A DNA stretch of 64,000 nucleotides from Escherichia coli (GTDB lineage Bacteria > Pseudomonadota > Gammaproteobacteria > Enterobacterales > Enterobacteriaceae), in the NCBI RefSeq assembly GCF_045037415.1, contig NZ_CP173438.1, one strand, 5' to 3'. Shown here piece after piece: positions 18,201-21,104 of this stretch. How positions within the stretch are numbered: position 1 is the stretch's first letter; each line of letters starts with the position of its first letter. Made by a program: the position numbers.

Positions 18201-21104
18201 ACAAAATAGTAACGTCAACAAGTGTGGCACACATCACGCATTTCTGCCTGTAATTAGCCCGTAATTCAGACCATTGCACCCATCGGACCAGTGGCAAATT
18301 TGCGTTATACTCAACTCACTTTGGCTTGCTGCGGCAGCTTTGTTACTGGAGAGTTATATGAGTCAGGCGCTAAAAAATTTACTGACATTGTTAAATCTGG
18401 AAAAAATTGAGGAAGGACTCTTTCGCGGCCAGAGTGAAGATTTAGGTTTACGCCAGGTATTTGGCGGCCAGGTCGTGGGTCAGGCCTTGTATGCTGCAAA
18501 AGAGACCGTCCCTGACGAGCGGCTGGTACATTCTTTTCACAGCTACTTTCTTCGCCCTGGCGATAGTAAGAAGCCGATTATTTATGATGTCGAAACACTG
18601 CGTGACGGTAACAGCTTCAGCGCCCGCCGGGTTGCTGCTATTCAAAACGGCAAACCGATTTTTTATATGACTGCCTCTTTCCAGGCACCAGAAGCGGGTT
18701 TCGAACATCAAAAAACAATGCCGTCCGCACCAGCGCCTGATGGCCTGCCTTCAGAAACGCAAATCGCCCAATCGCTGGCGCACCTGCTGCCGCCAGTGCT
18801 GAAAGATAAATTCATCTGCGATCGTCCGCTGGAAGTCCGTCCGGTGGAGTTTCATAACCCACTGAAAGGTCACGTCGCAGAACCGCATCGTCAGGTGTGG
18901 ATCCGCGCAAATGGTAGCGTGCCGGATGATCTGCGCGTTCATCAGTATCTGCTCGGTTATGCTTCTGATCTTAATTTCCTGCCGGTAGCTCTACAGCCGC
19001 ACGGCATCGGTTTTCTCGAACCGGGGATTCAGATTGCCACCATTGACCATTCCATGTGGTTCCATCGCCCGTTTAATTTGAATGAATGGCTGCTGTATAG
19101 CGTGGAAAGCACCTCGGCGTCCAGCGCACGCGGCTTTGTGCGCGGTGAGTTTTATACCCAGGACGGCGTGCTGGTTGCCTCGACCGTTCAGGAAGGGGTG
19201 ATGCGTAATCACAATTAAAAAAATAGCCGGAGGTGAAAACCGTCCGGCTGTTTTTTGCAGTGCTTGTTACGCGTTATAGGCATTCTCGCCGTGGCTGTTG
19301 ACGTCCAGCCCTTCTCGCTCCTGCTCTTCCGGTACACGCAGACCAACCGTCAGATCCGCCAGTTTGTAGCCGATAAATGCCACCACACCAGACCAGACAA
19401 TCGTAATGGCGATGCTTTCCAGCTGTACCAGCAACTGATGGCCCATCGTCACACCTTCAGCGAAGCCCACGCCGCCCAGCGAGCTGGCGGCAAAAATCCC
19501 GGTCATGATACAGCCGACAATACCACAAACGCCGTGCACACCGAAGACATCGCAGGGATCATCCACCCGCAGCAAGCGTTTGAGCATGGTAACGCCCCAC
19601 AAGCCCGCCAGACCAGCTACCACGCCGATAATCAACGCGCCGCCAACCCCAATGTAACCACAGGCTGGCGTCACGCCGACCAGACCGGCAATCGCGCCAG
19701 AACACGCTCCCAGCAGTGAAGGCTTACCACGCAGCGCCCATTCACCGAAGATCCAGCCAAGAATTGCCGCCGCGGTTGCGACCACAGTATTCACAAATGC
19801 CAGTGCCGCGATTTCATTCGCCGTGCCCGCTGACCCGGCGTTAAAGCCAAACCAACCGATATAGAGAATGGCAGTCCCGGTGAAGACCATCGGCAGGTTG
19901 TGCGGTTTAAACGCCTCTTTGCCGAAGCCCACGCGTTTGCCTATCAGATACGCGCCCACCAGACCGGCGATTGCGGCGTTAATGTGCACTACCGTGCCAC
20001 CCGCGAAATCCAGCGCACCGTGAGAAGCCAGCAAACCGCCGCCCCAGACCATATGCGCAATCGGAATGTAAGAGAGCGTCAGCCATACCACCACAAAAAT
20101 CAACACAGCTGAGAAGCGGATTCGTTCCGCCAGCGCCCCAACTATCAAGCCTACGGTAATGCAGGCAAACGATCCCTGAAACGCCACGTGGATATACTGA
20201 TAAATGCTGCCCATCACCGCCGTCAGTTCAATGTTTTTCAGCATCAACCCGTTAATGTTGCCGAAGAAGTTGTTGCCTTCGCCAAACGCCAGCGAGTAGC
20301 CGTAAACCACCCAGAGAATACAGACCAGTGCAAACGTCACGGTCACCTGCGTCAGCATCGACAGCACGTTTTTGCCACGAATCAGCCCTCCATAAAACAG
20401 GGCAATCCCCGGAATAGTCATAAACAGCACCAGCGCAGTACAAATCATCATAAATGCATTGTCGGCTTTATCGGCCACCGCAGGTGCAGCCATTACCAGT
20501 CCCGGCAGCATCGCCAGTGAAGTAAGCCCAGTTTTTATCGTTGCTATCTTCATTTTTCGTTCCTGTTGCTGTGTGCCAGAGATTACAGCGCCGCTTCGTC
20601 GGCTTCGCCGGTACGAATACGAATGACGCGTTGCAATTCAGCGACGAAGATTTTGCCGTCGCCAATTTTTCCGGTGTAAGCCGCTTTGCTGACGATATCG
20701 ATCACTTCATCGAGTTGGTCATCAGCAATCGCCACATCAATTTTTACTTTTGGCAGGAAGTTGACGCTGTATTCCGCCCCCCGGTACAGCTCGGCATGCC
20801 CTTTCTGACGCCCAAAACCTTTCACTTCGGTGACGGTCAGGCCCTGAATACCAATGGAAGATAACGCTTCACGAACGTCTTCCAGCTTGAATGGTTTGAT
20901 TATCACGGTCACCAGCTTCATAGATCCCCTCCGGTCAGAATTCGGTAATGGTTCTGCTACACGAAGAAGGTATTGCAAGCGGTGTGCCAGAAATGAAAAA
21001 CGAGAAAGAGAGCAGGAAGTTAAGAAGATTGAAAATGAAAACGCACTATGACAGTGCACAGTGCGTTACATTTTTGCACCAACGATGAAATATTGCGCTA
21101 TTCA

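Follow-up and report, generated by a model that had tools for sequence, protein, structure and literature searches.

What controls glnK-amtB in Escherichia coli from the 180-nt intergenic region between mdlB and glnK, and does the same region also serve the upstream mdlAB genes? The window analyzed here (a stretch of 64,000 nt of E. coli DNA) carries the gene order mdlA-mdlB-glnK-amtB-tesB, as read from its open reading frames and the K-12 annotation, and the glnK product shows 100% protein identity to a cluster annotated GlnK. The intergenic region houses two motifs that a preliminary description had picked out: a sigma-54 promoter and, further upstream, an NtrC-like palindrome. The region is almost certainly glnKp, the E. 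coli glnK-amtB promoter, which depends on sigma-54 and is activated by NtrC. This promoter with its NtrC enhancer is an already known, ordinary nitrogen-starvation switch. The K-12 promoter was reportedly treated by van Heeswijk et al. in 1996 and by Atkinson et al. in 2002, the latter said to be the primary footprinting and transcription study for glnK. The present result re-identifies a textbook regulatory region, and mainly shows that the motif reading of the preliminary description is reliable.

The locus and its features

Alignment with K-12 MG1655, the comparison proposed in the preliminary description, revealed one difference in 221 aligned bases, at position 21028 in the spacer, while both motifs were identical. 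An Rfam scan (E <= 1) returned no RNA family in 20400-21400, and a promoter scan detected no sigma-70-like promoter in 20400-21500, which argues against a hidden constitutive promoter there. A mechanically called 158-aa ORF from GTG 21059 was set aside: it is the glnK frame left open through the promoter, and the annotated start is ATG 20921. The features discussed below are collected in Table 1.

Table 1. Features of the mdlB-glnK intergenic region and adjoining genes, in window coordinates.
Feature	Position	Strand	Basis or remark
mdlB stop codon	21104-21102	-	
Conserved enhancer block (site A, 3-bp linker, site B, T-run start)	21037..21081	-	
NtrC site A, weaker candidate dyad, TGCAAAAATGTAACGCA	21062..21078	-	Centre 21070, ~ -107; 20 bp upstream of site B
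Terminator-like element on the mdlB transcript	21030..21065	-	Terminator scan
NtrC site B, stronger dyad, TGCACTGTCATAGTGCG	21042..21058	-	Contains GCAC-N7-GTGC; centre 21050, ~ -87 from predicted +1
Pyrimidine-rich spacer (loop region), enhancer to promoter	20991..21036	-	Sequence poorly conserved
Sigma-54 core promoter glnKp, CTGGCACACCGCTTGCA	20974..20990	-	Sequence; ChIP-seq and gSELEX on the identical K-12 motif
CT-rich anti-Shine-Dalgarno (anti-SD) element, CCTTCTTC, -7 to +1	20963..20970	-	Present only in read-through RNA
Predicted +1	20963	-	42 nt upstream of glnK ATG; 12 nt past the C in the -12 GC
glnK Shine-Dalgarno (SD), GGAGGGG	20926..20932	-	Sequence; invariant in Escherichia and Citrobacter
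glnK CDS, 112 aa + stop	20583..20921	-	ORF list, K-12 annotation; first gene under glnKp
amtB, next after glnK	20553-19267	-	

The sigma-54 core promoter and the predicted start site

Direct reading of the minus strand confirmed the TGGCAC-N5-TTGCA claimed at 20974-20989: it consists of TGGCAC (20989-20984), ACCGC (20983-20979) and TTGCA (20978-20974), with the GG of the -24 element at 20988-20987 and the GC of the -12 element at 20976-20975. This string, TGGCACACCGCTTGCA (20989-20974), matches TGGCAC-N5-TTGCW exactly and has the GG-to-GC spacing of a sigma-54 promoter. The exact pattern was found once in the window versus 0.10 times expected, and at least once in 10 of 100 shuffles; with one mismatch allowed there were 3 matches versus 2.13 expected, so that the relaxed pattern, being near chance frequency, is uninformative. 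The one-mismatch matches at 28578-28593 and 54082-54097 are intragenic, carry a damaged -12 element and do not appear in the sigma-54 ChIP-seq tables; they were rejected as chance occurrences.

TGGCAY-N5-TTGCW is kept in all 20 Enterobacterales loci compared; in the window the motif is on the glnK strand, with its predicted +1 42 nt ahead of the ATG. Moreover, published sigma-54 ChIP-seq places CTGGCACACCGCTTGCA upstream of K-12 glnK (Bonocora et al. 2015; FAT 18), the distance from motif centre to ATG being 61 nt both in that listing and in the window, and gSELEX with RpoN holoenzyme recovered the identical 17-mer. Judged from the sequence, the exact +1 would presumably be 20963; the rule of Bonocora et al., which puts the start 19 bp beyond the centre of the motif (distance 42 to glnK), points to the same nucleotide, and glnKp is flagged 'predicted in EcoCyc' by these authors.

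The NtrC enhancer

The palindrome GCAC-N7-GTGC, described at 21043-21057 of the minus strand, was likewise read directly as GCAC (21057-21054), TGTCATA (21053-21047) and GTGC (21046-21043), and its position "about 60 bp" upstream proved correct, since 62 bp separate the centre of the dyad (21050) from the first G of the -24 GG (20988). The corresponding site B agrees with the consensus TGCACCAnnnTGGTGCA at 10 of 14 positions and with the ChIP-exo NtrC motif GCaCcaaaAtgGtGC at all seven high-information positions, and no better NtrC site was found within 200 bp upstream of the promoter. Each of the 20 Enterobacterales loci carries the exact palindrome, with TGCAC and GTGC invariant in the 14 Enterobacteriaceae. 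Counted alone in the window, GCAC-N7-GTGC was found 3 times versus 1.96 expected, i.e., it is not rarer than chance.

On sequence grounds, this dyad is probably one half of a two-site enhancer whose weaker upstream partner, site A, lies at 21078-21062. Site A matches the consensus at 9 of 14 positions and is offset from site B by about two helical turns; it shows no variation in Escherichia and two Citrobacter species and very little in C. koseri, Enterobacter-like species and Yersinia, and is degenerate in Salmonella and K. pneumoniae. Occupancy of this weak site by NtrC is what we infer from these features. A perfect half-site, TGGTGCA (21081-21075), was considered as the right half of an alternative upstream site; since the left half of that site matches at only 1 of 7 positions in E. 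coli and is unconserved, the site A reading is preferred. A CRP-like reading of the TGTAA/GTGCA region fitted poorly by eye.

The enhancer block hardly differs between Escherichia and Citrobacter, while its flanks are variable or unalignable. Across ~5,400 E. coli genomes no part of the region varies less: the block is identical in 5360 of 5417 genomes (98.9%), versus 3006 of 5418 (55%) for the adjacent 45-nt spacer.

Published nitrogen regulation of glnKp

The description of glnK-amtB as an NtrC-activated operon induced by nitrogen limitation is supported by motifs identical to those of K-12 together with published occupancy and glnG dependence. Specifically: i) peak 1 of the NtrC ChIP-seq data is glnK-amtB (at a resolution of ~100 bp); ii) NtrC gSELEX yielded a peak between mdlB and glnK; iii) glnK mRNA was not readily detected in a glnG deletion; iv) NtrC-specific activity of glnKp was 400-fold higher in ammonium starvation and depended exclusively on NtrC phosphorylation; v) in Salmonella, nitrogen limitation raised the activity of the orthologous, sigma-54-dependent promoter from 1.1 Miller units to 1778 (Samuels et al. 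2013). The NtrC ChIP-seq interval (K-12 471741-471821) covers -81 to -1 from the ATG, with the dyad at -129; being centred on the promoter and not on the dyad, it does not resolve the bases contacted by NtrC.

Helical phasing of the spacer

On the sense strand, 43 of the 51 bases in 20991-21041 (a stretch reaching five bases into the T-run) are C or T. No match to the IHF-like pattern WATCAANNNNTTR was found in the spacer at two or fewer mismatches, and IHF-assisted looping is therefore unsupported. Between Escherichia and Citrobacter the spacer differs by a 10-bp indel, and over the 20 Enterobacterales loci the dyad-to-promoter distances form a ladder of 62, 72, 83, 92-93, 104-106 and 115-117 bp, with steps of ~10.5 bp and Escherichia on the shortest rung (62 bp). 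At a period of 10.5 bp the Rayleigh R was 0.85 (p = 0.0004; p = 0.004 when only the six rungs are counted), values to be read with the related taxa and with phasing classes that were defined after seeing the data. The NtrC dyad and the sigma-54 promoter keep a face-of-helix relation. Spacer change by whole helical turns has no prior description in the literature searched; the ladder across genera amounts to a demonstration, by natural variation, of the short-range face-of-helix rule for bacterial enhancers.

On this explanation, activation runs as follows. Sigma-54 RNA polymerase waits in a closed complex at TGGCAC-N5-TTGCA (20989-20974). When nitrogen is limiting, NtrB phosphorylates NtrC, and NtrC~P assembles ~60-80 bp upstream, on the strong dyad (21058-21042) and probably also on the weaker one (21078-21062). 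By looping of the short pyrimidine-rich spacer, in a geometry that we infer, NtrC contacts the polymerase, and its ATP hydrolysis opens the promoter, with transcription starting near the predicted +1 at 20963.

The CT-rich element at the start site

CCTTCTTC has the sequence of an anti-SD insulator and, as computed, pairs with GGAGGGG. In folding, the mean probability that the SD is unpaired was 0.45 in RNA starting at 20963 versus 0.01 in RNAs starting upstream. Levy et al. (bioRxiv 10.1101/086108) traced silencing to a CT-rich stretch of 7 nt in glnKp with its centre at -4. Conservation of the element does not extend to Citrobacter. In E. coli it would block translation of any read-through RNA.

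The enhancer dyad as a possible mdlAB terminator

Could one dyad act as the NtrC enhancer in DNA and, in RNA, as the intrinsic terminator hairpin and U-run of mdlAB? Such dual use is an extension of the main explanation and not a true rival of it, and the evidence leaves us evenly divided. The terminator scan flagged AACGCACTGTG-CACTGT-CATAGTGCGTT plus TTCATTTTCA right behind the mdlB stop, and no other terminator-like element between mdlB and glnK. The hairpin, CGCACUGUG-CACUGU-CAUAGUGCG (21065-21042), begins 36 nt past the mdlB stop; its 9-bp stem and 6-nt loop, with the T-run TTTTCATTTTCA at 21041-21030, make up the sequence of an intrinsic terminator. RNAfold gave -12.9 kcal/mol for the 39 nt running from site A through site B, hairpin included, and the hairpin end abuts the T-run. 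Because the enhancer sits directly after mdlB, dyad and T-run are probably the mdlAB intrinsic terminator.

Comparative data bear on both sides of the question. The T-run directly follows site B in 14 of 14 Enterobacteriaceae, where TTTT after GTGC(G/A) is invariant and the next ~30 nt are unalignable, and predicted hairpins stop exactly at the T-run in every Enterobacteriaceae examined; the NtrC sites of glnAp2 are without a comparable T-run. On the other hand, the T-run could be a bendable tract aiding a tight loop (Yersinia has an A5 tract in the same place), and in Yersinia, Rahnella, Acerihabitans and Photorhabdus the dyad is present without a T-run, with no alternative terminator in Yersinia and Rahnella, the two that were scanned. 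Pair counts reached 88% in H2 and 97% in H1, and a single compensatory swap of C-G to U-A was seen; this swap touches a linker base outside the NtrC 17-mers, but is probably a single evolutionary event. Good NtrC dyads all fold as hairpins, and pairing is therefore not independent evidence for a terminator. Furthermore, the stem is modest, the U-run of E. coli is not continuous (UUUUCAUUUUCA), and the published Term-seq tables searched contain no entry for an mdlB or glnK RNA 3' end.

For Enterobacteriaceae the full combination, in which the dyad is activator site and mdlAB terminator, forms with the anti-SD element (-7 to +1) a two-layer read-through insulator, and faces a spacer that evolved by whole helical turns, is put forward tentatively, as quite possible but leaning slightly towards doubt. 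The probable terminator of mdlAB and the CT-rich element would together keep glnK silent unless NtrC fires. Double duty of an enhancer as a terminator has no prior description in the literature searched. If true, a transcription factor site doubling as the terminator of the upstream operon would be a compact example of multifunctional tight intergenic regions, and would be relevant to the reuse of glnKp as a synthetic-biology part.

Terminator alone, or coincidence

A stricter alternative holds that the palindrome is the mdlB terminator hairpin alone, NtrC acting elsewhere or not at all. Its geometry is indeed terminator-like, the NtrC ChIP-seq interval is not centred on it, and GCAC-N7-GTGC occurs in the window at chance frequency. 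Yet several lines of evidence make this alternative highly improbable: i) in Yersinia, Rahnella and Acerihabitans the exact dyad survives without a T-run, 128-182 nt past the stop codon of mdlB; ii) in Photorhabdus it stands, also without a T-run, 15 nt past that stop; iii) it matches every high-information position of the NtrC motif, and the 200 bp upstream of the promoter offer no better site; iv) its distance to the sigma-54 core varies only by whole helical turns, which is sensible for a DNA-bound activator and not for an RNA hairpin.

That two short motifs co-occur by chance and have no regulatory meaning is a negligible prospect, already refuted in practice by the published ChIP and expression data: the relaxed sigma-54 and dyad patterns are each near chance frequency in the window, but the exact sigma-54 motif was expected only 0.10 times, both motifs recur at phased distances throughout the 20 Enterobacterales loci, the identical K-12 sequence has occupancy and genetic dependence on record, and simple arithmetic gives roughly 0.1 x 0.005 for the two falling together, correctly ordered and on the right strand, in the 42-130 nt ahead of the glnK ATG. 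The significance of the two motifs thus derives from co-location, cross-species conservation and the published K-12 binding data.

Comparison with known systems

The nearest relative is glnKp of K-12 (site OS03 of Bonocora et al. 2015), which is the same locus, the sigma-54 17-mer and both dyads being identical to those of the window; there is no difference of substance, and the window copy is a strain variant. The insulator of Levy et al. is the same element at the same promoter, and in native-context folds the SD is likewise sequestered in read-through RNA only; Levy et al. worked with synthetic reporters and an RBS that was also synthetic, whereas pairing with the native glnK SD is here computational.

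At glnAp2 of E. coli the mechanism is the same, with tandem NtrC dyads on one helix face upstream of a -24/-12 promoter. Its sites 1 and 2, at -140 and -108, are stronger matches to the shared consensus (13/14 and 12/14, versus 10/14 and 9/14 at glnKp), lie farther from the promoter and are 32 bp apart instead of 20 bp. The glnAp2 sites overlap a sigma-70 promoter (glnAp1) and have no T-run behind them, whereas the glnKp dyad overlaps a terminator-like hairpin and has one.

The glnK-amtB promoter of Salmonella Typhimurium (STM0462; Samuels et al. 2013) is orthologous, carries TGGCACATCCTTTGCA and also has a T-run after the dyad. It has one strong dyad (13/14), whose distance to the GG is 92 bp, and its site A is degenerate; E. 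coli, unlike Salmonella, combines a weaker dyad at 62 bp with a conserved site A.

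Identification of glnKp and its enhancer

Along the minus strand, mdlA and mdlB are followed by a 180-nt intergenic region, glnK and amtB, and then by the convergent tesB. The preliminary description placed a sigma-54 core, TGGCAC-N5-TTGCA, at 20974-20989 and a GCAC-N7-GTGC palindrome at 21043-21057 on this strand; both were present exactly there, and the claimed gap of ~60 bp corresponds to 62 bp from dyad centre to the -24 GG. The intergenic region differed from that of K-12 MG1655, the comparison that had been proposed, at one of 221 aligned positions (21028 in the spacer; T in the window, A in K-12). 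Thus the DNA is from E. coli, and what was noticed is the glnK promoter region known from K-12.

Features of the mdlB-glnK-amtB region (window positions)
Feature	Position	Strand	Remark
mdlB stop codon	21104-21102	minus	
Candidate NtrC site A, TGCAAAAATGTAACGCA	21078-21062	minus	9/14; 20 bp upstream of site B
NtrC site B	21058-21042	minus	within near-invariant enhancer block
Dyad halves	GCAC 21057-21054, GTGC 21046-21043	minus	N7 between halves
Sigma-54 core halves	TGGCAC 20989-20984, TTGCA 20978-20974	minus	N5 between halves
CT-rich anti-Shine-Dalgarno element, CCTTCTTC	20970-20963	minus	ends at predicted +1
glnK Shine-Dalgarno sequence, GGAGGGG	20932-20926	minus	
glnK ATG	20921-20919	minus	112 aa
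amtB	20553-19267	minus	

The 841-nt mdlB-glnK stretch was found as a single copy, annotated mdlB and glnK, in 5423 of 5426 complete E. coli genomes. The sigma-54 core and the dyads were free of variation among aligned E. coli strains, including AR434 and STEC1585, which vary at 20970 (C to T, the first anti-Shine-Dalgarno base) and at one spacer G. Two of ~5420 E. coli matches to the mdlB-glnK region (20583-21400) were plasmid-labelled records. In isolate 30859_5#287 (NZ_OZ040756.1, 2686-3475), IS1 lies in the glnK 5' UTR (~20936), downstream of the sigma-54 promoter and ahead of the Shine-Dalgarno sequence; this insertion should uncouple glnK-amtB from NtrC control. Upstream of its ATG the glnK reading frame meets no stop codon across the 5' UTR, the promoter and part of the enhancer, yielding a GTG-started 158-aa ORF (20583-21059, minus) which was rejected as a mechanical artefact, the annotated start being the ATG at 20921.

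The exact sigma-54 pattern matched once in the 64-kb window (0.10 expected), while with one mismatch three matches against 2.1 expected were uninformative, and GCAC-N7-GTGC alone was at chance level (three against 2.0). Therefore the weight of the motif pair is in its context, conservation and published binding data rather than in motif rarity alone. The one-mismatch sequences TGGCACGTAAATTACA and TGGCACGTTGTTTGAA (28578-28593, minus; 54082-54097, plus) were rejected: they lie within long ORFs, lack the -12 GC, and neither appears in published sigma-54 ChIP-seq tables. Two further exact dyads were located at 5288-5302 and 34385-34399 (GCACACCGGCAGTGC and GCACTTTGACGGTGC). The promoter scan of the glnK region returned no sigma-70-like promoter.

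Together with conservation, several lines of published evidence support the claim that glnK-amtB is NtrC-activated and induced by nitrogen limitation: i) The sigma-54 ChIP-seq site OS03 (CTGGCACACCGCTTGCA), centred 61 nt upstream of the glnK ATG (Bonocora et al. 2015), is identical to the window 17-mer, which lies at the same distance from the ATG, and RpoN-holoenzyme gSELEX yielded the same 17-mer; ii) NtrC gSELEX located a peak between mdlB and glnK; iii) In NtrC ChIP-seq of nitrogen-starved cells glnK-amtB was peak 1, and glnK mRNA was not readily detected upon glnG deletion, the interval being centred on the promoter, not the dyad, so that contacts are not resolved; iv) glnKp is described as exclusively dependent on NtrC phosphorylation, with NtrC-specific activity 400-fold higher in ammonium starvation; v) The orthologous Salmonella promoter (TGGCACATCCTTTGCA) is sigma-54 dependent and rose from 1.1 to 1778 Miller units in nitrogen limitation. 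Moreover, GCACTGTCATAGTGC in the window agrees with the ChIP-exo NtrC motif (GCaCcaaaAtgGtGC) at 7/7 upper-case positions, and the site B 17-mer matches the NtrC consensus (TGCACCAnnnTGGTGCA) at 10/14. The +1 at 20963 is a predicted position, because the Bonocora start site is itself a prediction and glnKp is tagged 'predicted in EcoCyc'.

Enhancer conservation and spacing

The Escherichia-Citrobacter footprint contained two conserved blocks: a near-invariant one, TGGTGCAAAAATGTAACGCACT(G/A)TGCAC(T/C)G(T/C)(C/T)ATAGTGCGTTTT (21081-21037), and the sigma-54 core. The enhancer 45-mer was identical in 5360 of 5417 E. coli genomes, but the adjacent spacer 45-mer in only 3006 of 5418. Pyrimidines make up 84% of the sense strand in the spacer between enhancer and promoter, which contains no IHF-like site. 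Site A, like site B a part of the near-invariant block, was conserved in Escherichia, Citrobacter and a number of Enterobacter-like species; Yersinia has it in altered form. Bacterial enhancers are generally tandems of activator sites, a picture which presumed occupancy of site A alongside site B would fit.

Loci of glnK were drawn from a species-representative genome collection and, via exact-protein look-ups, from five more genera. In 20/20 Enterobacterales loci examined, a TGGCAY-N5-TTGCW core stood 58-104 nt upstream of the ATG, preceded by an exact GCAC-N7-GTGC dyad; an Orbaceae locus which keeps the core but lacks an exact dyad within 300 nt was left out of the 20. The distance from dyad centre to -24 GG formed a ladder: 62 bp (Escherichia), 72 bp (three Citrobacter species), 83 bp (Enterobacter kobei), 92-93 bp (Salmonella, Superficieibacter), 104-106 bp (Klebsiella, Photorhabdus) and 115-117 bp (Enterobacter-like species, Yersinia, Rahnella, Acerihabitans), with a mean step of 10.8 bp. 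In the Escherichia-Citrobacter alignment one such step appeared directly as an indel of 10 columns, within a spacer that is otherwise poorly conserved. For classes set after data inspection and related taxa, a Rayleigh test at 10.5 bp gave R = 0.85 and p = 0.0004 (nine genus-level classes), or p = 0.004 when collapsed to six rungs. A DNA-bound activator contacting polymerase over a short loop would predict such a face-of-helix constraint between dyad and promoter; a dyad acting solely as an RNA structure would hardly account for it.

Six loci from species with 116-bp spacing carried a further NtrC-like site ~62 bp upstream of the main dyad, at about -203 from the predicted +1 (e.g., TGCACCAAAATCAGGCG or CGCACCATAATCAGGCA). 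E. coli had no convincing equivalent, only AGCGCCTGAATAGCGCA (9/14), which overlaps the mdlB stop codon.

Terminator-like element overlapping the NtrC enhancer

A terminator scan picked the same palindrome, AACGCACTGTG-CACTGT-CATAGTGCGTT followed by TTCATTTTCA, directly past the mdlB stop. Upon RNA folding, the hairpin 3' arm ended exactly at ...GTGCG with the T-run next in every Enterobacteriaceae sequence, and across 14 aligned species TGCAC, GTGC and the TTTT after it were invariant, the sequence beyond being not alignable. By pair counting, a hairpin involving the right half of site A and the linker was 88% paired, with one C-G to U-A swap at a pair that has its 5' base beyond the NtrC 17-mers; the site B self-hairpin was 97% paired, with no covariation beyond that of a protein-binding dyad. 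Judging from these sequence features, the palindrome and T-run are read as a probable dual-use element, NtrC enhancer and mdlAB terminator, with about even confidence. In Yersinia, Rahnella, Acerihabitans and Photorhabdus the dyad is retained and the T-run absent, and no other terminator-like element was found in Yersinia or Rahnella. Alternatively, the T-run could serve DNA bending instead of termination, consistent with an A5 tract at its position in Yersinia.

Anti-Shine-Dalgarno element

Levy et al. (bioRxiv 10.1101/086108) reported rpoN-independent silencing of a downstream reporter by glnKp in read-through transcripts, and mapped it to a 7-nt CT-rich element; the paper makes no mention of mdlB or a terminator. 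In partition-function folding, the mean unpaired probability of the glnK Shine-Dalgarno sequence was 0.45 for RNA from 20963 and 0.01 for upstream-started RNAs, because in the latter it is paired to the CT-rich element. Conservation of this element extends to E. albertii but not to Citrobacter.

Comparison with known systems

The observation is confirmed and its interpretation supported: the region is glnKp, a sigma-54 promoter that was already known together with its NtrC enhancer. The refinements are incremental: a weak second site, the overlap with a terminator-like element, spacer lengths that differ between genera by whole helical turns, and support from the native sequence context for the anti-Shine-Dalgarno insulator. 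At glnAp2 of E. coli no T-run follows the NtrC sites, whereas glnK site B adjoins one; thus the T-run is not generic to NtrC sites. In Salmonella, as in K. pneumoniae, site A is degenerate and site B stronger (13/14). E. coli combines a weaker site B with a conserved site A, and its contrast with Salmonella, where site B is near-consensus, may represent a compensatory enhancer trade-off. Finally, the element of Levy et al. was centred at -4 of glnKp, and here the native element is computed to pair with the native Shine-Dalgarno sequence.
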